NCBI GenBank assembly: GCA_937990735.1 | Contig: CALKQT010000034.1 | Location: 15,200-79,199 of the forward strand | DNA length: 64,000 bases | Reading direction: 5' to 3' | DNA from: an uncultured Campylobacter sp. | Lineage (GTDB): Bacteria; Campylobacterota; Campylobacteria; Campylobacterales; Campylobacteraceae | Shown here: positions 1,338 through 43,010 of the stretch, one piece after another | Numbering within the stretch: the first letter of the stretch is position 1 | Layout of the letters: every line of letters starts with the position of its first letter | Program-made: the position numbers and the translations under genes | Notes under the pieces: model-generated | Told to the model about the DNA's origin: nothing | Seen by the model: the letters and a program-made list of their open reading frames with translations, nothing else | Databases searched by the model: none

Positions 1338-3422
1338 ATGAAAATTCTACTTGACAATCACAATGAGCAGGTTGCAAGTGTCGTAAATATTTGCTGCGAG
1401 CGCATCGGTGCGGACCTAGTAGCATATAGTGCGGACGAGAGTGAATATGATTTGACGATAAAAAATTATGAAGATGGCGATGATATTTCAAAATTTGATC
1501 TTAATAAAACGCTGTTTCTGACGCCTAAAAATGTCTCAGTACCAGGAGCGCGATACACCCTTACTAAGCCTTTTTCGCCGCTTGAGCTCATCACGTTTAT
1601 CAGCGAGTTTTCGATTCAAAATATGAGCGTGCAGGCGAAAGAAAAAATGGCGAAAGAATTTGCCGATGCAAGCTCTGTGATGAAAGAGATCGATGCGATT
1701 GACCAGGCAAATTCCACTTCGGGTAGTAATTTTGAAGAGCTTGTGGATAGCTTTTACGACTCCGGCAAGGATATACCGCTTTCGCAGCTGGCAAGCGACA
1801 TAGCGCCCGAGATTGCAGATGATGTGCCGCTTTCGCAGTTGGTAGGTGATATGCCGCGCGCGCCCGAGATCGCAGATGATATTCCGCTCTCACAGCTTGC
1901 AGATGAAGCAGCTCTTGCGGACACCATCGCCGATGATACGCCGCTTAACGCAGTCGCAGAAAAGATTGCGGATAATATCGCAGACGATATGCCTCTAAAC
2001 TTAGCTGCTGGCGATATCCCTGAGGATGTACCACTAAATAGTATCAGCACAAGCGAGTCTGCCGAAAGTAATAACACACCTCAGGGCGAAATTTCGCTCG
2101 CAAAGGATGACGCTCCAATAGCTCTAGCAGCGCTAGATGATGAAAATCCTAAGAATTTCAAAACAAATAAATCGCAGACAGAAGATGAAATTCCCGCCAC
2201 ACGGGCAAGCGAAACTTTACCGCTTGCGCAGCAAGATGAGCCGCAAAGAGCCGGCAGCTCTAATGAAACTGCTGTTGAAAAAAAGGCAGACGCTGCGCCT
2301 AATTTAGAGGAAGCGAAAGACTCTGCGGACGTTACGCTTAAACAACATGAGTCAGACGGCTCATTTGCCTATAAAACAGAGGAAAGAAAATCTGCCTCGC
2401 AAGTAGTGCAAGATGCGGCTGGCGCGTCTGTTAACAGTGGATTTGATATGGATTTTTCTAGGCTTTTCGATAGCGCTGGCATGCCCGTGGAGGAGTTTGG
2501 CGGATATGATAATTTTGCCGCGGCTGCGTTTGCTTCTGATGAAAAAGAGGATAAAAAATCTGCGCATGATAAAAATAAAGCGGCTACGGATTTTCAAAAA
2601 ACGCAAATTTCGTCTCAATACGAGGTCGCTTCAGATACGCCGATTGCGCTAGCGGGTGCGGGCGATATACCTCGCGAAAATCTTTATAACGCCGTTCCAT
2701 TTCAAAGCATGGAATTTACTGGCGGACTTGCACAGAATACGCCTATTTCTGCTCATAATGAAGCAGGGGATTCAATTGGCGCAAATTTCGCAGCTTCTAC
2801 AAATTTTAGTAATACCGGGACCACAAATTCTACTCCTGCGCCGAATTTTTCGGAGCTAAACTTACCGCACATATTAGATGCCTCAGATTTACCGAATCAA
2901 AGCGAACAATCTGATAGCGTTGCTGGCGGGTTTGCGGACGGATTTTTACGCGCTATGGAGGGCGATTTTGCAAACTCGTTTGCCGCAAACTCCGCAGATA
3001 GCGAGCAATTTAAATCCGGCAAGCCCGCAAAGAGCGCCGCGCAGCAGATAAAATTTAATGCTTCAAAGCCTATATCAAAGGCTTCGGAGCGCACCGAATT
3101 TAAAGCGCATAAATTCGGCGCGTCCGAGCAGGTAAATGAGATGAAATTTGGCGCACAAGCTATGCCGAATGAGCTTGCCGCTTCGGCTGCGGCGGAGTTT
3201 GCCAGCCTTATGGCAAGCGAGTTGGAGCCCAGCGCCAAAAGCGAGCCACTGCGTAACGAGCATATCAAAAAACCGAGCGCCGAGGAGCTGAAAACCAAGT
3301 TGCGCGATGATCTGGAAGCGGGCATCGCAAATACTATCGAGAGATTTGCGGGTAGCAAGGACGCCAAAGACGCGCTGAAGGACTTTAAGATCAATATTGA
3401 CATATCGTTTGGAGATAGATAG
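1338..3422 (+). CDS. Highly acidic repeat protein of unknown function, same position as the C. jejuni 'highly acidic protein' upstream of gmk
   Basis: 694-aa ORF, D/E/A/S-rich, with tandem PEIADD[VI]PLSQL units. About 95-aa N-terminal globular region. Its stop overlaps the gmk GTG start (TAGTG). Confidence 0.7.
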   Translation: MKILLDNHNEQVASVVNICCERIGADLVAYSADESEYDLTIKNYEDGDDISKFDLNKTLFLTPKNVSVPGARYTLTKPFSPLELITFISEFSIQNMSVQAKEKMAKEFADASSVMKEIDAIDQANSTSGSNFEELVDSFYDSGKDIPLSQLASDIAPEIADDVPLSQLVGDMPRAPEIADDIPLSQLADEAALADTIADDTPLNAVAEKIADNIADDMPLNLAAGDIPEDVPLNSISTSESAESNNTPQGEISLAKDDAPIALAALDDENPKNFKTNKSQTEDEIPATRASETLPLAQQDEPQRAGSSNETAVEKKADAAPNLEEAKDSADVTLKQHESDGSFAYKTEERKSASQVVQDAAGASVNSGFDMDFSRLFDSAGMPVEEFGGYDNFAAAAFASDEKEDKKSAHDKNKAATDFQKTQISSQYEVASDTPIALAGAGDIPRENLYNAVPFQSMEFTGGLAQNTPISAHNEAGDSIGANFAASTNFSNTGTTNSTPAPNFSELNLPHILDASDLPNQSEQSDSVAGGFADGFLRAMEGDFANSFAANSADSEQFKSGKPAKSAAQQIKFNASKPISKASERTEFKAHKFGASEQVNEMKFGAQAMPNELAASAAAEFASLMASELEPSAKSEPLRNEHIKKPSAEELKTKLRDDLEAGIANTIERFAGSKDAKDALKDFKINIDISFGDR
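1774..2045 (+). repeat. Coding tandem repeat (about 45-bp units, DD-x-PL-[SN]-x-[LV] peptide repeat) inside the acidic protein
   Basis: Repeated DIPLSQLA / DDVPLSQLV / DDIPLSQLA / DDTPLNAVA / DDMPLNLAA / EDVPLNSIS segments are visible in the translation and DNA. Confidence 0.75.
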
Positions 3423-4267: not shown

Positions 4268-6064
4268 TTGAAAAATTTAGTCTTAAATGAAATTTTTAAA
4301 ATTTTATCTCGCAAAGTCGTTTTAGAAAAACCCAAAGATAAAAGTTTGGCTCATTACGCCTCGCCCGAGGCTTTCGCGCTAGCTAAGGAGCTGCGAAAGG
4401 CGCCAAAGCTTATCGCCGAGGAGCTTGCGGCTAAATTTAAAGATAGCGAAATTCTAAGCGCCACGGCGGTGAATGGCTATCTAAATTTTCACCTAAAGCC
4501 CGCCGTGTTGGGCGCTCTTGCTGAAAATGCCCTTAGACTGGGCGGCGATTTTGCGAAAAACGACGCCGAGCTTGGACGCGGAATTTTACTAGCTTCAAAG
4601 AAGCTTTGCGCGAGCGAGCCTGCTAGCAAAGGCTGTGCTGCAAATCTAGCTGCGAGAGGCAACGACACCGCCAAATCGCAAAATTCCGCCACTAGGCAAA
4701 ATTTTATTTCGCAGAATTCCGAAGAGGCGTCAAATTCTATCGCAGCATCAAATTGTGATGAGGCGCGGAATTCCGCCGCCGCGCCGCAAAAAATTCTACT
4801 CGAATACATTAGCGCTAATCCTACAGGTCCGCTTCATATCGGGCACGTGCGCGGCGCCGTTTATGGCGATACATTCGCCCGCATCGGAGGCTATCTGGGG
4901 CACCGCGTCGATACCGAGTACTACATCAACGACGCGGGCAATCAGATTGAGCTTTTGGGCACTTCGATCGCGCTTCGTGCGCGCGAGCTCGCGGGCGAGG
5001 ACGTGAGCTACCCCGAGAAATACTACCGCGGCGAGTATATCGACGAGATTATCCCTCTTGCGCGCGCTGAGTTCGGTGATGAAATTTTCCGCGACGAATC
5101 GCGGATCTTGCAGCTCGCGGAGTTTGCTAAAGACGAAGTGCTAAAGATCATCCAAAAAGATCTCGCAGACGCCGGCATCCATATCCAAAACTGGGCTAGC
5201 GAAAAGAGCCTCTACGGCGAGCTTGGGTCTACGATTAAGAAGCTCGAGCGTAGCGGCAAGATGCATGAGGCGGATGACAAAATTTGGATCCGTTCATCGC
5301 AGCTCGGCGACGAAAAGGATCGCGTCGTCATTCGCGAGGATGCGCGCCCGACCTATCTTGCGGGCGACATCGTCTATCACAACAACAAATTTGAGCGCGG
5401 TTACGATAGATACATCAACATCTGGGGAGCCGATCACCACGGCTACATCGCGCGCTTAAAGGCTGCCGTGCATTTTCTGGGCTACGACGAAAGCAGGCTC
5501 GAGATCATCCTAATGCAGATGGTAAATTTGCTCAAAGACGGGCAGACCTACAAAATGAGCAAGCGCGCGGGCAACGCGATTTTGATGAGCGACGTGCTCG
5601 CCGCGATCGGCAGGGACGCGATGCGATTTATCTTCATCAGCAAAAAGGGCGAGACGCCGCTTGAGTTCGACGTGGACGAGCTCGCGCGCGAGGATAGCAG
5701 CAATCCGATCTTTTACATCAACTACGCCCACGCGCGGGTCAATCAAATTTTTACCAAAGCGGGCAAGCGCGAGGCGGACGTCTTGGGCGCGGACTTCGGC
5801 ACGCTAGATGAAGCGGGGCTCGGCCTAGCTTTTGCGGCGCTTGGTTTGAATGAAATTTTAAACGACGCATTTAATTCGCGCGGCTTGCAGAAGCTGCCCG
5901 ATTTCCTAAAGGCGCTCGCAGCGGACTTTCACAAATACTACAACGAAAACCGCGTCGTAGGCAGCGAGAACGAGGATGCGAAGCTCAAGCTGTTCGCTCT
6001 CGTAGCGCTCAGTATCCGTACGGCGTTTGCTCTGATGGGCCTAAGCGCGAAAGAGAAAATGTAG
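4268..6064 (+). CDS. argS: Arginine--tRNA ligase carrying an in-frame low-complexity insertion of about 70 aa
   Basis: Class I motifs: HIGH (PTGPLHIGHVRG) and KMSK (YKMSKRAGN). TTG start 5 nt after tatA. About 68 aa longer than my recollection of C. jejuni ArgS (about 530 aa, not checked here). The extra segment lies between the N-terminal domain and HIGH. Confidence 0.9.
   Translation: MKNLVLNEIFKILSRKVVLEKPKDKSLAHYASPEAFALAKELRKAPKLIAEELAAKFKDSEILSATAVNGYLNFHLKPAVLGALAENALRLGGDFAKNDAELGRGILLASKKLCASEPASKGCAANLAARGNDTAKSQNSATRQNFISQNSEEASNSIAASNCDEARNSAAAPQKILLEYISANPTGPLHIGHVRGAVYGDTFARIGGYLGHRVDTEYYINDAGNQIELLGTSIALRARELAGEDVSYPEKYYRGEYIDEIIPLARAEFGDEIFRDESRILQLAEFAKDEVLKIIQKDLADAGIHIQNWASEKSLYGELGSTIKKLERSGKMHEADDKIWIRSSQLGDEKDRVVIREDARPTYLAGDIVYHNNKFERGYDRYINIWGADHHGYIARLKAAVHFLGYDESRLEIILMQMVNLLKDGQTYKMSKRAGNAILMSDVLAAIGRDAMRFIFISKKGETPLEFDVDELAREDSSNPIFYINYAHARVNQIFTKAGKREADVLGADFGTLDEAGLGLAFAALGLNEILNDAFNSRGLQKLPDFLKALAADFHKYYNENRVVGSENEDAKLKLFALVALSIRTAFALMGLSAKEKM
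4680..4795. repeat. AATT-core short-period repeat (15-18 bp spacing) inside argS
   Basis: AATT at 4682, 4700, 4715, 4733, 4751 and 4769, with spacings of 18, 15, 18, 18 and 18. Translated as QNS/QNF/QNS/NS/NC/NS units. Confidence 0.75.
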
Positions 6065-9359: not shown

Positions 9360-9514
9360 ACGCGCGACGCTATTTGGCGGATAAAATCCGCTTGCACTGT
9401 GAGAGAGTGCATTACTTGTCGCCTATCGAAATACATTGCGGCTCGAGTGCTATTTCTCCGCCAGCCAAAATGTGCTACGCTTTGGTCGTATCCTTCCATG
9501 CCTATCGAGATGCG

Positions 9515-9784
9515 CTACGGATCGGATCGCTCATTTTCGCTACCGGCGGGAGCGCGTTTAAGTAGCTCCTGTTCGCGAGCGAATAATCTGCAAAATTTTT
9601 CCCAGTCGTGCAGATAGACGAGCCTGTGCTCTTTGCCATTTTCGTCTATGTAGATGCCTTGCGTCGAGCATAGGCTCATCTTTTGCCAGTAGCCGAAAAA
9701 CGGCAGTGCCTCGATGTCATCTTGCAGTACACCTCGCATCGTGCCGTTATCGTAAATTTTTAAATCATAATAAGTCATTTCCAT
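9515..9784 (-). CDS. Hypothetical small protein
   Basis: 89-aa ORF with no recognisable motif. Sits in a small accessory islet. Confidence 0.4.
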   Translation of the reverse strand: MEMTYYDLKIYDNGTMRGVLQDDIEALPFFGYWQKMSLCSTQGIYIDENGKEHRLVYLHDWEKFCRLFAREQELLKRAPAGSENERSDP

Positions 9785-9990
9785 TTTTAACCTTTCTAAA
9801 TTTTATATCTATGAAATTCTGCCGCGATAAAATTCTGCTTTCTTAAAATTTTATCGAGATAAAATTCCGTAAGTCGGATTTAGAATTTTAAAATTCCATG
9901 CGCCACGAAATTTGCTGTAAATTCCGCCCCTTTAAATTTTGCGGCGTCAATCCTCGATGAAGCCCTGTAGAATTTTACCGCAAGTAAAAT
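9785..9990. repeat. Intergenic RAATTY-rich short-period repeat block
   Basis: ctatgaaattctgcc, gataaaattctgc, cttaaaatttta, gataaaattccg, tagaattttaaaattcc, cgaaatttgc, gtaaattccgcc, ttaaattttgcgg. Confidence 0.7.
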
Positions 9991-10920
9991 TTAGCCTACC
10001 AGCGCCTTTAGCTGCTCGGCGTTTAGCCCATCCACCAAAATATAGCTCGTATCGATGAAGCGGTAGTTTTGCTTCGGCAGGCGCGCGATAAAATCGTCGT
10101 ATTCCAGCTCGGCGATTGCATGGTAGTTATCGGCGTCGTTTTCGTCGCCCTCGATGCCTATGAGTGCGATCTGCCAGCGCGCGACGTCGTTATTTTTCAG
10201 CATCTCCGTGTTTTGCCATTCCACAAACGGTTTGTAAGGCAGGATAGTAGGTAGGTCTTGCGTGAGCGCGTATGAGCCCATTATCGTGCCGTCATCTCCA
10301 TTTCGATAAAACCTCTGGCGCGCGCTGTAAGCGTCGAGATACTGCACCTCGGTTAGCCGCTTGCTAAACTCGGCAGAGGGGTTGTATGAGGCTAAAATTT
10401 CATCCATCATCGCGCGGTTTATCGCAAAAGGCCTCTCTACTCCGTAGCAAAAATTTACCTCCGTATCGCCACTTAAGTGCTGATCTATCGAATGCAGTCC
10501 CGCCGATATATCGCGCTCGTAGTCGAATTCCTCTATCCTGTCGTGGGTGTAAATTTCGCCGTTTTCATCCGCGATCTCGCCCCCCAGCTGCTTAGATAGC
10601 GCCTGTAGATATGAGATTGCCAAAACCCAATCAAATACCGTCGCTGGCGTATTTATGCGCACGGCGTAGCTTTGCTGCTCCTCGTCATATCTTAGCTCCA
10701 TCCCGCGCCCGCTCTTGCCTCGCACGCCCAAGATCAAGCACTCCTGCTCGCTCAAAGGCGATTTTAAAAACGCCCTCTCGTCAAAGTCCTCGGCGCTCTC
10801 GTCTATGCCAAATACCGATAGATCGGGTAGGAGCTCCAATGCCTTGCCTACGCTCATGGCGTCCGAATAGCCCATAAATAGCGGGCGCTTTTTGTTTTTG
10901 ACGCGGAATTCTACGCTCAT
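9991..10920 (-). CDS. Hypothetical protein (309 aa), no recognisable catalytic motif
   Basis: Start chosen at MSVEFRV (cat at 10918..10920), preceded by AAAGGAGAAAACG. The longer ORF to 10995 lacks an RBS. Confidence 0.6.
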   Translation of the reverse strand: MSVEFRVKNKKRPLFMGYSDAMSVGKALELLPDLSVFGIDESAEDFDERAFLKSPLSEQECLILGVRGKSGRGMELRYDEEQQSYAVRINTPATVFDWVLAISYLQALSKQLGGEIADENGEIYTHDRIEEFDYERDISAGLHSIDQHLSGDTEVNFCYGVERPFAINRAMMDEILASYNPSAEFSKRLTEVQYLDAYSARQRFYRNGDDGTIMGSYALTQDLPTILPYKPFVEWQNTEMLKNNDVARWQIALIGIEGDENDADNYHAIAELEYDDFIARLPKQNYRFIDTSYILVDGLNAEQLKALVG

Positions 10921-11081
10921 CGTTTTCTCCTTTGTTAAATTGGCAAAATTATAGCGAAATTTTACCCGCCGCAGCGGGCTAAATTTGTAGCGCAAGGAGT
11001 TGCAAAAAGTAAGCTTAAAGCTTTTTGGAAGTAGAATTTAAGTGGGTCACACAGGCGGTAAATTTAATCAAAGGAGCGAAA

Positions 11082-11720
11082 ATGACGAAAGATCAATGCT
11101 GCGTCCTAAAGCATTTGACGGCGGGCGAGACGGGCGGTTTTGGGAAAACGGGCGAGATGAATGACGGGGAGTTTTTGAACGCGCTTACCGGAAAAGGGCT
11201 TGTTTGGATGCTTGACTGGGTCGGCGAGGACGAGACGGGAGAGCTGGGTAAATTTATCAGCTCTAGGCTTGATGCGCTGCAAAGTGGCGTGGCTCTAGAG
11301 TGCGATAAAATTTACGCAAGGCTCGAAAAAGAAGCAAAAAAAGAGGGTTTCGAGCGCGGCGATGCGAGCCTATTTTTGATGAACGAGTTTCAAAAGGCGC
11401 TGAAAAAGAGCGATTTTAGGCTCTTTACTTTGGACCTTCATAGCGACGCTTATTATCTGCTCGTCGCGCACAAGGACGCCGAGAAAGATTTTAAAAAGCT
11501 AGGCAAGCGCGAGGAGCTATTTTGGGATATCGCGCCGTGGGGCAAGCGCCGCAAAAGGCAGATCCTTTACGTCATAAACTGCGAGTGCGGCGAGATGTCT
11601 GCGTGGCAGCTGGATGCGGACGAGCCGTCGCCAAGAGACGAGGTTTGCGAGGTCTGCGGGCGGGTGCTTTTTGACGCAGACGGCAATGCGATGCAGCCTT
11701 TGGAGAAGGAATTTATCTGA
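11082..11720 (+). CDS. Hypothetical protein with C-terminal CxC...CxxC zinc-ribbon-like motif
   Basis: Start at MTKDQ, preceded by AAAGGAGCGAAA. C-terminus is INCECGEMSAW...EVCEVCGRVLFD. Confidence 0.55.
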   Translation: MTKDQCCVLKHLTAGETGGFGKTGEMNDGEFLNALTGKGLVWMLDWVGEDETGELGKFISSRLDALQSGVALECDKIYARLEKEAKKEGFERGDASLFLMNEFQKALKKSDFRLFTLDLHSDAYYLLVAHKDAEKDFKKLGKREELFWDIAPWGKRRKRQILYVINCECGEMSAWQLDADEPSPRDEVCEVCGRVLFDADGNAMQPLEKEFI

Positions 11721-12408
11721 TCTTTTTACTTATCGCGGCTTTGCGTGCGAAGTTTCGGCTAGATGAAAAGTTAAATTTTATTGCGCAGCTCAGCAGGATT
11801 TGGCGCACAGGTTTGGTTTGCAGCTCGGCGGCGAAACGTAGTTTAAATTTAAGGCTTGCCGGGCGGCGGAATATGTTTTCATACGGCTCGCTTTGGTAGT
11901 AAAATACGCTTCGGCGCGGCTAGTTTTGCTTTGCTGTTTGCGTGAGCGGTAAAATTCGCGGCTTGCATTTGTATCTCGCAAGACCGCAGCGCAGGACGCA
12001 CTCTTTTAGCGCTTACGTTCCGCTTTTATGTTCTTGCCTCTCAAGTTCGCAGTCACAGACGTATCCGTTCAATGCTGCGCTAAATTTTGATTTTAATGGT
12101 TATGGACGCCAAGCCTGCTCCACCAAAAATCAAAATTTAGCTCTGCCTGCGATCACTAATTTTATAATCCTGTAAATTTAAAATTTTAAGCGTAAAATTT
12201 TGAACTAAAATCTCTAAATTTTAAATGCGATACGAGCTTACTGGCTCGCTTGTTATAAGGTTCGTAAACTCCGCCGCCGCATAAGCGACGAATTTATTCG
12301 ATAAAAATAAGACAAAATTTTAGCTAGAGCGCTCGAAAAGAATTCCGATGTTAGCACGCCCTTAAACGCGCTGTGTTTGAAATCCGAAACCGACGAGGTG
12401 CGGCGAGG

Positions 12409-13386
12409 CTAGCCGCGAGCTTTGGCGATGCACGCCTCAATCGCCGCCATCACCGCTGCGCGAAACCCCGCAGCCTCCAGTGCCGCCAGCCCCTCAATCG
12501 TCGTGCCTGCAGGCGAGCAGACCGCGTCTTTAAGCTCCGATGGGCGCTTGCCTCTTTGTAGCAGGCGCGCCGTGCCCTCTACTGCCGCCGCTACCGCGTC
12601 GTAGCACAGCGCTCGCGGCAGTCCGCCCCGTACGCCCGCGTCTGCCGCCGCCTCGATAAAGGTGCACATATACGCAGGTAAGCTGCCAGCAATCCCCGTA
12701 AATGCGGCAAAACCAGCCTCGTCTATCTCGTAGAATTTGCCGATTTTGGCGGCTAGCGCTCGCACGATCTCCCGACTGGCCTCATCAAAATACTCGCCGT
12801 AGCACAGCGCCGTAGCTGACGCGCCGATACCCGCAGCGACGTTTGGCATCGCGCGGGCTACAAAAACGTCCGCACCTACGATATTTTGGGCGCACTCCAG
12901 CTTGAAATTCGGCGCCAAAAGAAGCAGGATTTTGCCCGCAAGCTCAGGCGCGATCAGGCGCAAAATCCCCTCGTAGCTGGCGGGCTTGGTCGCGAGCACG
13001 ATAATATCCGCTTCGTGCGCCAGCTGCGTCTCGCCTTGCAAAATTTGCACGCCGTAGCGCTTGCGTAAGGTTTCGTTTTTGCTTCTAGCATAAGCTAGGA
13101 CTTGAAGCTTCGTATCGGAGCTGGACTGTGCGTAAGAGGAATTTTGCCCGTCGCTAGCGGAATTTTGCATATCGGGCTCGGAATTCCGCTCGCAAGCGGT
13201 AAAATTTTGAGTATCGGGCATAAAATTCCGCCCGTCGTGCGCGCAATTCTCTCCGCTCGCTGCGCAATTTTCCTTATCCTCTGTAAAATTTTCTCTGCTC
13301 GCCGTGCAATTTTGCCCGCCAGCTTTGCAAAGTGCGGCGATCATCGCCTCGCCCATATTTCCGCCGCCGATAAATCCCACTTTCAT
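12409..13386 (-). CDS. proC: Pyrroline-5-carboxylate reductase carrying an in-frame heptad-repeat insertion of about 68 aa
   Basis: N-terminal Rossmann motif MKVGFIGGGNMGEAM. C-terminal PGGTTI-like motif SPAGTTIEGL. RBS AAAGGAGC before the ATG at 13386. The insertion lies between the first Rossmann helix and the next strand. Confidence 0.85.
   Translation of the reverse strand: MKVGFIGGGNMGEAMIAALCKAGGQNCTASRENFTEDKENCAASGENCAHDGRNFMPDTQNFTACERNSEPDMQNSASDGQNSSYAQSSSDTKLQVLAYARSKNETLRKRYGVQILQGETQLAHEADIIVLATKPASYEGILRLIAPELAGKILLLLAPNFKLECAQNIVGADVFVARAMPNVAAGIGASATALCYGEYFDEASREIVRALAAKIGKFYEIDEAGFAAFTGIAGSLPAYMCTFIEAAADAGVRGGLPRALCYDAVAAAVEGTARLLQRGKRPSELKDAVCSPAGTTIEGLAALEAAGFRAAVMAAIEACIAKARG
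13140..13328. repeat. Nine tandem 21-bp units, each starting with AATT (exact 21-bp phase), inside proC
   Basis: AATT at 13140, 13161, 13182, 13203, 13224, 13245, 13266, 13287 and 13308. The units diverge outside the core (aattttgcccgtcgctagcgg, aattttgcatatcgggctcgg, aattccgctcgcaagcggtaa, ...). Confidence 0.9.
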
Positions 13387-13502
13387 TTTCGCTCCTTTTA
13401 AAGCTAAATTATGCCTCAATGATAGCTCAAAATTTCTTTATCCGCCCTTGCGGCGCGCGGTTTATCTACGTAAAAGCAAATTTTAGCTACAATCTCGCCT
13501 AA

Positions 13503-14546
<1,044 letters not shown>

Positions 14547-14559
14547 TTTCGGCTGAGCT

Positions 14560-15750
14560 TTGGCTAATACAAATCCACGCGGGCGCCGTAAAAAGCGCCA
14601 GATCAACTACGCAACGATCGCCTTTGTCGTAATCTTATGCTTTTTAAGCGGTGCGGTTACCTACGCGGTTTTGGATCTCGTATTTTCGGGCAATAAAGCC
14701 GCGTTGCAGCAAAGCTCGCGCAAACAAACTCCCGAGAGCCCTTCCGATTCTCGCGGTAAAAAGCCGCGTTTAAGCGCTGCACAGAAGGAAACTCTGATTC
14801 AAAAGGAGCTTGATAAGATCGCCGAGCAAAACGTAACCGCGCCTAAGATGAGCATCGAGCCCGCACGGCAGAATTCCGCAGGACAAAATTCTTCAAACGG
14901 CGATTCGCAAAATTCCGTAAATTCTATCGCTTCCTCAAATTCCGTCGCCGTAAATTCGGCAGGCGGCGGATCGGACGTAAATTTTACCGCGGCAAATTCC
15001 GCTTCAGAAAATTCCATAAATTCTACCGCGCAAAGCCACGCTTCTAGCGGCGCGGACGATCTTTCTAAATCGCCGCGCAAGGCTTTGCCCGCAGGCTCTC
15101 GCGCAAAGCTAGCGATCATCATCGACGACGTAGGTACCGGCGAGCAGGCGCAAAAGATTGCCGCGCTGCCCGTGCGAGTGACGCCATCCATCTTCCCGCC
15201 CGAGTATCAGCGCAAGGACACGCGCTCGCTCGCTCGCGGCTTTGAGCATTACGCGATCCACCTGCCGATGGAGGCGAGCTCTGCCAAAAATAATTCCGCG
15301 ACGCTGCGAGCTTCGGATAATTATGAAAAGCTGCAAGGCGTCATAGCGAAGCTACGCGCGGACTTTCCGAACGCTAAATTTATAAACAACCACACCGGTT
15401 CTAAATTTACCGCCGACGAGCGCGCGATGCAAAACCTACTGCGCGCGATGAACGAGCATGGATTTTTATTTATCGACTCGCGCACGAGCCCCGCTACCAA
15501 GGCTAAGGCGGCGATGAATGAGCTTGGCATGCGATACGTGCATCGCGATGTATTTTTGGATAATCAAAACAGCGTCGCCGCGGTGCGCAAAAAGCTGCGC
15601 GAAGCCGTCGCGCTTGCTAAAAAGCAGGGTTACGCCATCGCTATCGGCCATCCCAAAAGCTCCACTCTGCGCGCGCTTGCAAACAGCGCCGACATCCTAG
15701 GCGAGGTCGATTTAGTGTATTTGGACGAAATTTATGAGTACTACGAGTGA
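14560..15750 (+). CDS. Divergent polysaccharide deacetylase family protein (YibQ-like) with N-terminal TM anchor and low-complexity linker
   Basis: LAIIIDDVGTG...HLPMEA...INNHTGS...GHP motifs. TTG start. Confidence 0.75.
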   Translation: MANTNPRGRRKKRQINYATIAFVVILCFLSGAVTYAVLDLVFSGNKAALQQSSRKQTPESPSDSRGKKPRLSAAQKETLIQKELDKIAEQNVTAPKMSIEPARQNSAGQNSSNGDSQNSVNSIASSNSVAVNSAGGGSDVNFTAANSASENSINSTAQSHASSGADDLSKSPRKALPAGSRAKLAIIIDDVGTGEQAQKIAALPVRVTPSIFPPEYQRKDTRSLARGFEHYAIHLPMEASSAKNNSATLRASDNYEKLQGVIAKLRADFPNAKFINNHTGSKFTADERAMQNLLRAMNEHGFLFIDSRTSPATKAKAAMNELGMRYVHRDVFLDNQNSVAAVRKKLREAVALAKKQGYAIAIGHPKSSTLRALANSADILGEVDLVYLDEIYEYYE

Positions 15751-16522
15751 GCTCGGTTTTAAAATTCAAAGCCTAGCAAGGCTCGGTGCGAGCGAGCCCG
15801 CGCAGCTGTATTTTAGGGGCGAGCCGGCGCTACTGCAAAAGCGCCGCATCTCGATCGTGGGCTCGCGCAAGATGAGCGTTTATAGTAAAAATTTGATCCT
15901 GCGCCTTGCGCGCGCTTTGAGCGATGCGGACTTTTGCGTCGTAAGCGGCGCGGCGATCGGCTGCGACATAGCCGCGCACGAAGGGGCGTTTCCAAACACG
16001 ATTGCGGTTTTTGGAAACGGTCTTGATCAAATTTATCCCGCGCAAAACGCCACCATGATCGGCAAAATTTATGAGCGTAGCCTCGCGCTTAGCGAGTATG
16101 AGGACGGCGTGAGCGCGCGCGGATTTCAGTTTTTGCAGCGCAACCGCATCGTCGTGGCGCTGTCCGAAGCTCTGATTATCGCTCAAGCCGAGCCTCGCAG
16201 CGGCTCGCTGCAAAGCGCGCGCCTGGCTCGTGAGATGGGCGTGCCCGTGTACGTGCTGCCGCACCGAATGGACGAGAGCGCGGGCACGAATGATCTGCTC
16301 GCAAAATCTCAGGCGCGACTGATTGCGGATTTTGGCGAATTTGTCGCCTCTTTGGCTCCGCAGACGCCGCAAAACACTGAGCGCGCACGGGATGAGGTGA
16401 TGGAATTTTTAGCGCTAAATTCCGATCTGCAAGCGGCGATCGAGCGCTTCGGAGATAAAATTTACGAATACGAGCTTGAAGGCAGGATCGAAATTTTAGG
16501 CGCAAAGATAGTGGCAAAATAG
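15734..16522 (+). CDS. dprA: DNA processing protein DprA (Smf)
   Basis: IVGSRKMS.Y......L...L......VVSGAAIGCDIAAHEGA Rossmann-like DprA core. Overlaps the upstream gene by 17 nt. Confidence 0.85.
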   Translation: MSTTSELGFKIQSLARLGASEPAQLYFRGEPALLQKRRISIVGSRKMSVYSKNLILRLARALSDADFCVVSGAAIGCDIAAHEGAFPNTIAVFGNGLDQIYPAQNATMIGKIYERSLALSEYEDGVSARGFQFLQRNRIVVALSEALIIAQAEPRSGSLQSARLAREMGVPVYVLPHRMDESAGTNDLLAKSQARLIADFGEFVASLAPQTPQNTERARDEVMEFLALNSDLQAAIERFGDKIYEYELEGRIEILGAKIVAK

Positions 16523-16721: not shown

Positions 16722-17114
16722 TTGATAGTTGCGATCGATCTTGGGCTTAAACGTATCGGTGTGGCAGCGGCACCGGATGATAAGACGCCGCTTCCGTGCG
16801 AGCCGATCCTGCGCAAAAACCGCACCCAAGCCGCGCGCGAGCTAAGCGAACTGCTGCGCGAAAAGGGCGCCAGCGTGCTAGTGCTGGGCGTGCCGCGCGG
16901 CGGGGCAAGCGAAGAGGAGATGAGCAGGCGCATACGCCACTTCGCCTCGCTGCTGGATTTTGACGGCGAGATAAAATTTCAAGACGAGAGCTTTTCGAGC
17001 GCCGAAGCGGCGGAGTTTGTGAGCAAAGGCATTAAAGGCGGCGGCAAGGACGCGCGCTTTGATAGCATTGCCGCGACGATAATTTTACAGAGGTTTTTGT
17101 CGAGTAAGGGTTAG
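16722..17114 (+). CDS. ruvX: Putative pre-16S rRNA nuclease / Holliday-junction-resolvase-like protein YqgF
   Basis: N-terminal IVAIDLGLKRIGVA motif, 130 aa, TTG start. Confidence 0.85.
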   Translation: MIVAIDLGLKRIGVAAAPDDKTPLPCEPILRKNRTQAARELSELLREKGASVLVLGVPRGGASEEEMSRRIRHFASLLDFDGEIKFQDESFSSAEAAEFVSKGIKGGGKDARFDSIAATIILQRFLSSKG

Positions 17115-29999: not shown

Positions 30000-30325
30000 T
30001 GAAAGCTTTTATCGATTGCGACTGCGAAATTTTGCAAAGGACGCTGGAGCTGTTTTTGAAGGATCGCGCTACAAGTGCGCAGGATTGCGACTTTGTGATA
30101 AGCGATGAGCCACAAAGCTCGGCAAAACCGCTATTTTTGATCGGCGAGGGCGGAGATCTGACGCTACCGTTTTCAAAGAGTGCCTTGCTATCGAAGCTGG
30201 AGGATTTTCAAGGCTCGCTAAAGCGGGATTTTAGCGAATATGACGCGGCGGAAGAGGAAATTTGCGCTCTATTTGATGAGTTTAAGGCAAGAATCATCGA
30301 AATTTTAAGAAGGCAAAATGGCTAA
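29996..30325 (+). CDS. Hypothetical protein (109 aa)
   Basis: ORF translationally coupled on both sides (ATGA overlap upstream, 8-nt overlap downstream). No recognisable motif. Confidence 0.5.
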   Translation: MMKAFIDCDCEILQRTLELFLKDRATSAQDCDFVISDEPQSSAKPLFLIGEGGDLTLPFSKSALLSKLEDFQGSLKRDFSEYDAAEEEICALFDEFKARIIEILRRQNG

Positions 30326-31775
30326 ATTTTCCAAACCCGCCGGCGCGCTCTTTACGCAAATCTCAAGCGGCATTTATAGGGGCAAAAAGCTCGCTCTGCC
30401 CGCGTTTTCGAGTACGCGCAGCACGAAAAGCATCGTAAAGGGCTCGTTTTTCGATACTTGGCGGGCGGAGTTGCGCGGCGCGGCGTTTATCGAGTGCTTC
30501 GGCGGTAGCGGCGCGATGGCGCTTGAAGCGCTAAGTAACGGCGCAAAAAACGTTTATGCGATCGAAAAGGATGTCGCCGCGCATAAGATAATGCGGAAAA
30601 ATTTCGAGTTTTTTGGGCTCGGCGCAAACGCGATTTTGGGTGATTGTTTCGAGCGACTACCCGAAATTTTGCACGAGCTGCAAGCGGATATGAACGGACG
30701 CTCGGGCGCGAATTCGCTAAATTTAAGCGGCAAAAATTTAGACAAAAACCATGCCGCCACCTACCGCAAAAATTTAGACGGCGAAAAAGACGGCTGTCGC
30801 AAAAGCTTTAGTGGCGTAGAGCAGGGCGAGAACCCATACTGCGGCACGCAAAGCGTAGAAGTGGAAGACGGCACGCAAAGCGGCGTGAAAGATTTTGCAA
30901 AATGCGGTACGCAAAACAGCGTGTCTTACGGCACGCAAAATGGCGCGCAGGGCGGCGCAAATGATGATTGCGCAGGCGAGGGTTTTGGCGATTGTGCCCA
31001 GATTAACGATTATGCGGGCGCTTCTAGTATAAAATATCGTGCGAATTCGCTAACTACGGATGCCGCGAGCTTTGGCGAAAAGGTTGACGATAACTGCGCT
31101 TCTCAATACGACGCGAGCGGCACCGAGACCGCTAATTGCAACTTAAATTTAAGCTCAAAATGCAGCGAGAGCTCTAATTTTGACGCAAATCGCGGTGCGG
31201 GCTTAGGCGCGAGCTGCGAAGAGAAAGAAATCTTAAATTTAGGCGAAAATTTTGATTCTAGCTGCAGAAAAAGTTTACATTCAAGCGCAAATTTCGTCTA
31301 TGATTCAAGAAAAAATTCCACTGCGAATTCTGACGGCAATTTTGGCGCTAGTTGCGAAGAAAATTCGCGCCCAAACGTAAATTTAACCCGTGGTTCAGGA
31401 AAAAATTTCGCCACCAACTCCCGTGAAAATTTAGCATGCGGTTTAGGCGAAAGCTCTACCGCAAACGATTTAGGCAAATGTTCTGCTGCAAATTCTAGCG
31501 AAAGCCATACCGTAAATTCTAGTGAAAATTCCGTCTCCGATCCCGCGCGCAGAGTGTTTGTCTATCTAGATCCGCCGTTTGCGATCAGGCAGGGCTTTGG
31601 CGAGATTTACGAGCGGGTGCTGGCGCTGATAGCGCGCCTAGGCTCCGTGCGGTGCGAGCTGCCAATCGCGATCGAGCATATGAGCGAGCTTGAGCTGCCG
31701 CCTAAAATCGGCGATTTCGCGCTGCTTAAATCGCGCAAATTCGGCGCTACGACGATGAGCTACTACGTAAAATGA
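30318..31775 (+). CDS. rsmD: RsmD-family 16S rRNA (guanine-N2)-methyltransferase split by an in-frame low-complexity insertion of about 288 aa
   Basis: N-terminal 121 aa (GIYRGKKL..P....TRST...VKGS.F, motif I ECFGGSGAMALEALS) and C-terminal 76 aa (motif IV VYLDPPF) together make a normal RsmD of about 197 aa. Confidence 0.7.
   Translation: MAKFSKPAGALFTQISSGIYRGKKLALPAFSSTRSTKSIVKGSFFDTWRAELRGAAFIECFGGSGAMALEALSNGAKNVYAIEKDVAAHKIMRKNFEFFGLGANAILGDCFERLPEILHELQADMNGRSGANSLNLSGKNLDKNHAATYRKNLDGEKDGCRKSFSGVEQGENPYCGTQSVEVEDGTQSGVKDFAKCGTQNSVSYGTQNGAQGGANDDCAGEGFGDCAQINDYAGASSIKYRANSLTTDAASFGEKVDDNCASQYDASGTETANCNLNLSSKCSESSNFDANRGAGLGASCEEKEILNLGENFDSSCRKSLHSSANFVYDSRKNSTANSDGNFGASCEENSRPNVNLTRGSGKNFATNSRENLACGLGESSTANDLGKCSAANSSESHTVNSSENSVSDPARRVFVYLDPPFAIRQGFGEIYERVLALIARLGSVRCELPIAIEHMSELELPPKIGDFALLKSRKFGATTMSYYVK
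30681..31544. repeat. Low-complexity, AATT-rich coding insertion inside rsmD
   Basis: Asn-[LSFC]-rich translation (NSLNLSGKNLDKN, NFDANRG, NFGASCEEN, NSSESHTVNSSENS). Internal repeats CGTQS/DGTQS/CGTQN/YGTQN and GASCEE(K/N). Confidence 0.65.
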
Positions 31776-42614: not shown

Positions 42615-43010
42615 CGGGCTAGAGTTTTTAAAGCATTTATGCGGCTTACGTTACGGCTTAAGCGCGAAATTTTGTCTAAAGTTACGGCGCAAAATTTTGC
42701 CTAGATTTACAGCATAAAATTTTTATCAAGAGCTTGGTTTTAGAATTCCATCCCGAATTTCGTTTAGGATTTCGTCTAAAATTTTAACTTATATAAAATT
42801 TGGGTTTGTGATCTCGTTTAAAATTTTAACGCGTAATTCGCTTTTGGATTTTATCCGCTATCCTAAAACGCAAAGCTTTGGAATTTTAAATTTAGCGGCA
42901 GGCTATGGAATTTAAAATTTTAAATCAAGCTGGAATTTTATGGGTTGCAATGGAATTTAAAATTTTGGATCGAACGAAATTTTACGTATCGGAATTTTTA
43001 AAATTTAAGA
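42615..43010. repeat. Intergenic RAATTY-rich short-period repeat block
   Basis: gcgaaattttgtc, gcaaaattttgcc, cataaaattttta, ttagaattccatcccgaatttcg, ctaaaattttaac, tatggaatttaaaattttaaatc, ctggaattttatgg, aatggaatttaaaattttgg. Confidence 0.7.

Follow-up and report, generated by a model that had tools for sequence, protein, structure and literature searches.

A degenerate 21-bp in-frame repeat with conserved AATT cores in proC of an uncultured Campylobacter, and its possible link to the RAATTY methylation motif

In-frame, repeat-derived disordered loops are already known, and so are over-represented uptake or methylation words. Asparagine-rich inserts of Plasmodium proteins are low-complexity, disordered insertions in housekeeping proteins, and the Rickettsia palindromic elements (RPE) are dispersed mobile elements, palindromic and ~100 to 150 bp long, with recognisable DNA copies. 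Here we describe a locus at which features of both kinds may meet: a tandem array of nine 21-nt units with AATT cores inside proC, the pyrroline-5-carboxylate reductase (P5CR) gene of an uncultured Campylobacter sp. The array lies in a 64,000-nt stretch (assembly GCA_937990735.1, contig CALKQT010000034.1, positions 15,200 to 79,199 of the forward strand), referred to below as the window; coordinates count from its first letter. It had been noticed by a model that saw only the letters and their open reading frames (the original prediction).

Words of the second kind include the uptake signal sequences (USS) of Pasteurellaceae and the DNA uptake sequences (DUS) of Neisseria, which lie preferentially at poorly conserved residues and with a bias in reading frame (Findlay and Redfield, PMC2817400). 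Within Campylobacter, the hexamer RAATTY (R, purine; Y, pyrimidine) is methylated in C. jejuni, C. coli, C. fetus, and C. hyointestinalis (PMC4294202, PMC13436318), with 27,514 motif positions on both strands of the 1.6-Mb C. jejuni genome (PMC4294202) and 24,750 in C. fetus (PMC13436318). According to PMC10046745, which cites Beauchamp et al. 2017, DNA uptake in C. jejuni requires methylated RAATTY; C. jejuni is the only species for which RAATTY-dependent uptake is described there.

The gene, the insert, and the array are placed as follows.

12409 to 13386, minus strand: proC, pyrroline-5-carboxylate reductase, 325 aa, identified by Pfam, PDB, and homologue matches.
13318 to 13386, minus strand: strand β1, GxGxxG loop, and helix αA of the NADPH-binding Rossmann fold, directly upstream of the insert; columns invariant in the alignment.
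13114 to 13317, minus strand: lineage-specific insert, residues 24 to 91, between helix αA and strand β2 (PDB alignment, AlphaFold2 model).
13123 to 13311, minus strand: nine 21-nt units encoding the heptads NCTASRE NFTEDKE NCAASGE NCAHDGR NFMPDTQ NFTACER NSEPDMQ NSASDGQ NSSYAQS (translation, unit comparison, and in part Tandem Repeats Finder [TRF]).
13140 to 13311, no strand assigned: nine AATT cores, with plus-strand starts at 13140 + 21n, n = 0 to 8.

The AATT cores start on the plus strand at 13140, 13161, 13182, 13203, 13224, 13245, 13266, 13287, and 13308, and all intervals are 21 bp. On the coding strand all nine are read as AAT|TNN (Asn, then Phe, Cys, or Ser), and translation returns exactly the nine heptads that the original prediction had listed together with this exact period. 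It had also described the spacers as diverged, which agrees with an in-register identity of 36.6% over their 17 nt; for this reason TRF detects only the best-preserved 3.4 copies (13243 to 13313, period 21). The spacers are nevertheless more alike than those of codon-permuted controls (similarity of 0.365 versus 0.294 ± 0.019; P = 0.002), and units 0 and 2 have 17 of 21 bases alike. The cores thus did not come together by chance but belong to a genuine, if old, tandem repeat: nine units of a constant 21 nt, a length divisible by 3, similar beyond chance. The proC array is an old, degenerate, in-frame tandem repeat. AATT occurs at 795 of the 64,000 window positions (0.0124), and by our own arithmetic the chance of eight more at one fixed spacing is ~6e-16 per start; given the peptide, nine AATT in nine units would arise under genome codon usage with a probability of ~7e-4 to 5e-3. 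A scan of the window found no longer AATT run at any period from 5 to 60 and no other run of at least four at period 21. The gene is base-for-base identical in four fetched contigs, each from another sample and assembly, and the protein is identical on 19 contigs from different metagenome samples, which excludes the assembly artefact that the original prediction had named as one possible refutation.

What is conserved within the units was assessed in 29 proC genes of identical length, a gap-free set for which alignment was unnecessary. Nucleotide diversity is 0.045 in the cores versus 0.124 at the 17 spacer positions, with 8 of 36 core sites and 84 of 153 spacer sites segregating (P = 4e-4; Fisher's exact test), and the core phase has the lowest diversity among all 21 phases of the unit. 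The T that opens the codon after Asn (unit position 4) has a diversity of 0.01 and the next base (position 5) one of 0.18; the residue itself switches among Phe, Ser, and Cys while its first codon base stays T. A fixed T beside a varying residue is hard to explain by protein-level selection. Diversity at codon positions 1, 2, and 3 of the insert is 0.110, 0.124, and 0.122, compared with 0.032, 0.020, and 0.144 in the rest of proC. Since the insert values are equal at the three positions and at the synonymous level, the peptide is essentially unconstrained: the loop is under essentially no selection except for frame keeping. The conserved part of each proC unit is the DNA word AATT, not the peptide.

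The window holds further AATT-studded segments in which the same comparison could be made or that resemble the proC insert in composition.

14860 to 15040, plus strand: linker of a divergent polysaccharide deacetylase (coding sequence, 14560 to 15750), with 10 frame-0 AATT at irregular spacing.
30693 to 31505, plus strand: ~270-aa insert splitting an RsmD-like methyltransferase domain (coding sequence, 30318 to 31775), with Pfam Cons_hypoth95 in two stretches.
4568 to 4790, plus strand: low-complexity insert (…NSATRQNFISQNSEEASNSIAASNCDEARNS…) of arginyl-tRNA synthetase (ArgRS) at the junction of the N-terminal and catalytic domains (coding sequence, 4268 to 6064), with frame-0 AATT and Asn-Ser/Asn-Phe.
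About 2784 to 2870: low-complexity insert in a 694-aa protein without a Pfam match (1338 to 3422), with Asn-Ser/Asn-Phe and frame-0 AATT.

In the deacetylase linker, diversity is 0.021 at AATT and 0.187 elsewhere, and in the RsmD-like insert it is 0.032 at cores versus 0.127 (P = 6e-4; gap-free columns), against values of 0.120, 0.112, and 0.129 at codon positions 1, 2, and 3 that indicate neutral evolution. Across the three independent inserts (proC, deacetylase, and RsmD-like), the cores are thus 3- to 9-fold less diverse than the spacers, and AATT ranks first in conservation among the 44 tetramers of the pooled set. The constraint reaches synonymous bases: silent T/C polymorphism affects 2 of 38 AAT|T Asn codons and 39 of 107 other NNY codons of the same inserts (P = 1.2e-4). 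A general NNT|T codon-context effect was considered and rejected, other NNT|T codons being polymorphic in 3 of 12 cases. So was alignment bias as the source of core conservation, the proC test being gap-free by virtue of equal lengths and the RsmD-like test having been repeated without gap-adjacent columns. Even though Ser is most often encoded by AGC, Asn-Ser is written AAT-TCN in 20 of 22 instances within inserts, compared with 16 of 46 beyond them. Conservation of the motif at protein-neutral sites thus appears in synonymous polymorphism, in three inserts, and in a permutation test over 7 kb (below), and bears out the DNA-level constraint that the original prediction had proposed. The logo of 38 cores and their orthologues (R, 92%; AATT, 93 to 98%; Y, 91%) is RAATTY. 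This hexamer is a known Campylobacter methylation motif, so the unit is something other than the undescribed element for which it had been taken. In the proC array itself, six of the nine cores are RAATTY and three, those of the Asn-Cys units, are CAATTY on the plus strand.

These segments also vary in length. Indels of the deacetylase linker start and stop at AAAATT cores. The RsmD-like gene carries 22 of its 25 AATT in frame 0, and its product is anywhere from 225 to 497 aa long in close relatives whose flanks are 92 to 94% identical (loci L063 to L101). Short alleles join '…GANS|SESH…', a ~780-bp deletion or insertion between two AATT cores, so the whole insert is a presence/absence polymorphism. 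The ArgRS insert contains a period-18 AATT run (4715 to 4769). In total, at least 5 of the 56 window genes have such inserts, ArgRS among them. Outside genes, the intergenic region 9790 to 9990 resembles the inserts, with AAAATTY cores every 10 to 23 bp and GC-rich spacers, and includes five AATT spaced exactly 16 bp (9799 to 9863). A 25-bp tandem repeat of 2.5 copies (42661 to 42723; consensus AGCGCAAAATTTTGCCTAAAGTTAC) has a GCAAAATTTTGC palindrome at its centre. The next gene downstream of the deacetylase is dprA (DNA_processg_A, 6e-53; 15734 to 16522), a natural-transformation gene that is widespread, followed by ruvX (16722 to 17114). No tRNA or tmRNA genes were found in the window with ARAGORN.

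ProC is otherwise an ordinary P5CR, as originally predicted. It matches P5CR_dimer (PF14748; 1.1e-32) and, in a split match, F420_oxidored (PF03807; 2.7e-13), both above Pfam cut-offs, and PDB P5CR structures match it at up to 5e-37. The protein thus has the P5CR dimerisation domain and an N-terminal NADP-binding Rossmann domain, with the GxGxxG motif as GGGNMG at residues 7 to 12. Translation starts at the ATG at 13386 (MKVGFIGGGNMG) and not at the TTG further upstream at 13419; MKVGF opens all homologues. Two features on the opposite strand border or overlap the array.

13524 to 14546, plus strand: ilvC, ketol-acid reductoisomerase (Pfam KARI_N and KARI_C), divergent neighbour of proC, starting 138 bp beyond the proC start.
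13102 to 13401, plus strand: antisense open reading frame of 99 aa with GIL/KIL heptads, open across the array; judged not to be a gene.

The antisense frame was rejected as a gene because a TAA (sense AAT TTA) interrupts it in most orthologues; in the orthologue comparison, the codon-position signature is absent from both the sense and the antisense frames of the array.

The block follows directly on MKVGFIGGGNMGEAMIAALCKAGG, the end of the first Rossmann helix, in frame and where the original prediction had put it, as both alignment and model bear out. Against solved P5CRs, residues 3 to 23 align to β1 and αA, and the alignment restarts at about residue 91, so that ~67 ProC residues stand in place of a turn of ~3 residues in the PDB structures. 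An AlphaFold2 model gives β1 at 2 to 7, αA at 10 to 22, coil at 23 to 94, and β2 at 95 to 99. Because that model was built on a shallow alignment and has a mean predicted local distance difference test score (pLDDT) of 55.9, only its Rossmann part is trustworthy. Over insert residues 26 to 91, pLDDT is 24 to 31 (about 25). Structure prediction, one of the checks that had been proposed, therefore points to a disordered αA-β2 loop; protein constraint on it is relaxed, and most orthologues do without it, as would suit a dispensable segment. The αA-β2 turn of Rossmann folds lies at the sheet edge facing away from the dinucleotide site, and a loop there should be harmless. The Campylobacter N-glycosylation sequon (D/E-X-N-X-S/T) was rejected by inspection as an account of the asparagines: Asp/Glu stands at -1 and not -2, and ProC is cytoplasmic.

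Orthologues, which the original prediction had suggested aligning, show that the array changes by whole units. Uncultured human-associated Campylobacter are the source of all the closest ProC proteins, and lengths among close relatives are 304, 311, 318, 325, and 332 aa, i.e., in steps of seven residues; proteins of 329 and 336 aa also occur and result from an 18-residue duplication. Units are individually orthologous across more than 40 uncultured Campylobacter species (GTDB representatives), and length changes are losses or duplications of named units with junctions in a common GAA-AAT-T. This microhomology is therefore a signature of slippage or unequal recombination, and the array behaves among close relatives as an in-frame variable-number tandem repeat. 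Unit number ranges from ~6 to 10, and some alleles are off register, with spacings of 9 + 12, 42, or 54 bp. The 3′ third of the insert (units 6 to 9; 13123 to 13185) is dimorphic among species, …NSEPDMQNSASDGQNSS… versus …NSANLEQNFASRERDSA… (loci L001 to L051), and these forms are found attached to different 5′ parts, an arrangement suggesting that lineages have recombined. In C. concisus ProC, the same site is occupied by a homologous insert of ~50 residues that keeps the heptad register but contains a single AATT. The αA-β2 insert is missing from C. curvus ProC (P0124, 301 aa), where a later loop carries a low-complexity insert of its own (…KFNGADDFGVVNDKNSDDTKTRKFDANDSNLTVPRGENASQP…); which loop of the enzyme has expanded thus differs between species. 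Most ProC proteins are 255 to 275 aa long, and the insert is absent from nearly all.

Beyond the inserts, AATT is the top over-represented tetramer of the window (observed/expected, 1.57; second-order Markov model), and 81% of AATT sites are RAATTY. AAATTT reaches 19 times its zero-order expectation and ranks first of 4,096 hexamers against synonymous-codon shuffles. Genes contain 348 RAATTY versus 150 ± 9 after such shuffling (z = 23). RAATTY occurs once every 99 bp in the window (47.7% G+C), 8.6-fold above composition, and once every 102 bp across 329 kb of loci from the clade (51.9% G+C), 11.8-fold above composition. The word is thus over-represented against base composition, Markov models, and synonymous-codon shuffles alike; no information was found around AATT past the RAATTY hexamer. 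When 135 tetramers are ranked by conservation over 7 kb of DNA aligned from 35 species, AATT comes fifth, and it is more conserved than class-matched random sites (P < 2e-4; permutation test), and changes in its flanks keep R and Y in 80% of cases versus a background of 64%. AATT is also concentrated at weakly constrained places, with 1 per 31 nt in the three inserts versus 1 per 124 nt in other coding DNA. Genes overall have no frame preference (151/128/152 AATT by frame), whereas the proC insert cores are all in frame 0.

Other short words of the window stand out as well. GATC is the most conserved tetramer (0.54 of class expectation, 42 sites; window positions 9409 to 16386 against loci L001 to L051), and its conservation ahead of AATT suggests a second methylation-type palindrome under constraint. 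GGCC (observed/expected, 0.22), CCGG (0.50), and GTAC (0.56) are strongly under-represented under the second-order Markov model, a scarcity typical of restriction-site avoidance.

We consider it highly probable that the proC array is an old, degenerate, in-frame 21-bp repeat forming a dispensable, disordered surface loop in a normal ProC, with DNA-level constraint on its cores. The array grows and shrinks by whole units, as slippage or unequal recombination would lead one to expect; its period is 21 because one 7-codon unit was amplified and because lengths not divisible by 3 do not persist in coding DNA. The cores may be copies of RAATTY, the motif of CtsM/CfeMI-type methylation in Campylobacter. 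A genome-wide force, be it recombination biased by uptake, as with USS and DUS, or selection on how densely the motif occurs, would hold RAATTY near 1 per 100 bp despite a G+C content of 48 to 52%. Unconstrained loops would then be places where RAATTY sites can pile up, with AAT|TYN (Asn-Ser, Asn-Phe, or Asn-Leu) as the motif reading that loops appear to tolerate. For the enzyme, the loop probably does nothing. This link of the cores to RAATTY methylation and uptake is put forward tentatively, and we are slightly more inclined to doubt it than to accept it; the explanation as a whole, which blends the repeat and its constraint with that link, seems to us somewhat probable. A more far-reaching version, in which RAATTY is an uptake or self-recognition signal under drive or density selection that also builds in-frame disordered segments (ProC, ArgRS, RsmD-like, and deacetylase), is rather unlikely. 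If true, it would mean that a DNA-uptake or methylation code shapes protein length and disorder.

Several observations weigh against this account, most of them bearing on RAATTY. In the 7-kb alignment, clear conservation of the entire hexamer is confined to AAATTT and does not extend to GAATTT, AAATTC, or GAATTC. Of the nine proC cores, the three in Asn-Cys units read AAATTG or GAATTG; they do not fit RAATTY and yet are equally conserved. Other A/T-rich tetramers are likewise enriched against codon shuffles, and the signal may therefore be partly a general A/T-tract effect or a context-dependent mutation bias. No RAATTY methyltransferase, CtsM-like gene, or DNA adenine methyltransferase motif was found in the 64-kb window. 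The diversity statistics count alleles in related, recombining sequences and not independent events. Finally, as the homologous loop of C. concisus has one AATT, the constraint is not universal in the genus.

The strongest competitor keeps the repeat and dispenses with selection on the word: the array would be a neutral relic whose cores were inherited from the amplified unit and persist as a slow-mutating cold spot, dependent on context or methylation. All units do descend from one, general codon-context effects favour NNT before A, C, or T, several A/T-rich oligomers are enriched, and TTT codons in the inserts are likewise rarely polymorphic. However, core diversity (0.02 to 0.05) falls far under the synonymous diversity of the same genes (0.12 to 0.14), the constraint is specific to AAT|T among NNT|T codons, the cores of three unrelated inserts converge on the R-AATT-Y logo, and a genome-wide excess of 9- to 12-fold could hardly arise unless a directional force or a very strong bias were at work; we judge the relic explanation unlikely. 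Lower still stands a functional heptad repeat, such as a Cys/Asn metal-binding, regulatory, or interaction module in which Asn is selected as an amino acid. It is true that every relative keeps Asn at the start of most units, that several Cys positions show fair conservation, and that the reading frame always stays intact, but such a function hardly accords with diversity that is equal at codon positions 1, 2, and 3 and at the synonymous level, with units gained and lost whole, with a pLDDT of about 25, or with absence from C. curvus and nearly all other ProC. Moreover, the synonymous third base of AAT is itself constrained, Phe, Ser, and Cys swap after Asn with the first base T kept, and Asn-Ser shuns the preferred AGC. 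A protein function for the heptads is accordingly improbable, about as much so as a phased protein-binding or curved-DNA array, which would present one helix face every two turns to a regulator or nucleoid protein acting on the proC-ilvC pair.

That last idea is close to the original prediction, which took 21 bp for two helical turns, and it draws on the exact period (~2 × 10.5), on cores conserved at the DNA level, and on a position starting 75 bp inside proC and ~210 to 385 bp from the ilvC start. An in-frame repeat must, however, have a period divisible by 3 in any case, unit number varies from ~6 to 10 among species with the register broken in some alleles (9 + 12, 42, or 54 bp), the deacetylase, RsmD-like, and ArgRS inserts have equally conserved cores whose spacings are irregular multiples of 3, and there is no information beyond the hexamer. 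Autocorrelation of AATT, a check that had been recommended for the whole genome, shows no helical periodicity (10 to 11, i.e., 10.5, or 21 bp) in the window outside the array; the excess lags (24, 42, and 45) are mostly multiples of 3, with clusters of them in the coding inserts, and period 21 is represented by one three-member run (12175 to 12217), like almost every other period from 8 to 45. Of the earlier statement that core and period recur in noncoding DNA of the window, the core thus holds and the period does not. In-frame colonisation by a mobile or dispersed repeat family, for which RPE had been cited as precedent, would fit the in-frame low-complexity inserts with the same core in at least 5 of 56 window genes, housekeeping enzymes included, and a weak compositional tblastn similarity between inserts (E = 0.002, with composition-based statistics off). 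Against it, a blastn search of the window outside the array gives chance matches of ≤13 nt only, and neither block nor unit has a dispersed DNA copy there. There is no long palindrome or stable hairpin (mRNA fold z = -1.5, not significant, with 15 of 200 shuffles folding at least as well), and no Rfam family matches over 11500 to 14000. The insert also keeps to one orthologous site in more than 40 species and, in eroded form, in C. concisus, with growth that is local and by unit duplication. The two marks of an RPE-like element, dispersed copies and a hairpin, are thus missing, and colonisation is very improbable. An assembly artefact or chance has in its favour only that tandem repeats can be mis-assembled; given four identical assemblies, the protein on 19 contigs, a register kept in orthologues, and a negligible chance probability, it hardly deserves consideration.

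The favoured account, an old in-frame repeat with constrained cores that may be RAATTY copies, can now be set beside the described systems. As with RPE, the extra peptide of ProC sits in frame in a loop of a housekeeping protein without destroying function; unlike RPE, the block is a local 21-bp tandem array without dispersed copies or a hairpin. As with the Plasmodium inserts, it is an in-frame, repeat-derived, Asn-rich loop that is length-variable, near-neutral, and made by slippage. In contrast to them, Asn is here the by-product of a conserved DNA word, the genome is not AT-rich, the spacers are GC-rich, and the conserved element is a hexamer constrained at synonymous sites and not a homopolymeric run. 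To our knowledge, tandem in-frame loop-forming arrays in housekeeping enzymes have not been described for USS or DUS. RAATTY does resemble the USS of Pasteurellaceae and the DUS of Neisseria in being a short word over-represented genome-wide, conserved independently of the protein, most frequent where the protein is poorly conserved, biased in reading frame, and leaving a footprint on peptide composition (PMC2817400). It differs from them in being only a degenerate hexamer, and recognition in C. jejuni depends on methylation, not on sequence alone. A further parallel is the cyanobacterial HIP1, a highly iterated palindrome tied to methylation and transformation (bioRxiv 10.1101/2024.09.10.611283). 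Within Campylobacter, the N6-methyladenine (m6A) motif of CtsM, M.CjeIAI, and CfeMI is the same as the logo of the conserved cores in this uncultured clade. The RAATTY density of this clade (1 per 99 to 102 bp) resembles that of C. jejuni and C. fetus; in those species, at 30 to 33% G+C, the motif is cheap, whereas here, at 48 to 52% G+C, the same density is a 9- to 12-fold excess.

A literature search found no prior description of AAATTT/RAATTY over-representation or of such inserts. What is new, as far as the literature searched goes, is the combination: a methylation/uptake hexamer enriched ~10-fold in a Campylobacter of middling G+C, constrained at synonymous sites, and forming the conserved skeleton of neutral, indel-prone inserts within housekeeping enzymes.

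The proC array offers a clean natural case of a coding sequence conserved for a DNA word and not for its amino acids, and the Asn-X dipeptides of these loops are a translation by-product of RAATTY. For annotators and structural modellers, this means that no function should be read into lineage-specific repeat loops of this kind, and copy-number differences in them are neutral strain markers. For Campylobacter biology, it raises a testable question: whether the RAATTY methylation mark serves only as a label or, like USS and DUS, is itself subject to selection or drive across the genome. In the latter case, species from 30% to 52% G+C should have a roughly constant site density, and the motif should be constrained at neutral sites and should pile up in loops that tolerate it.

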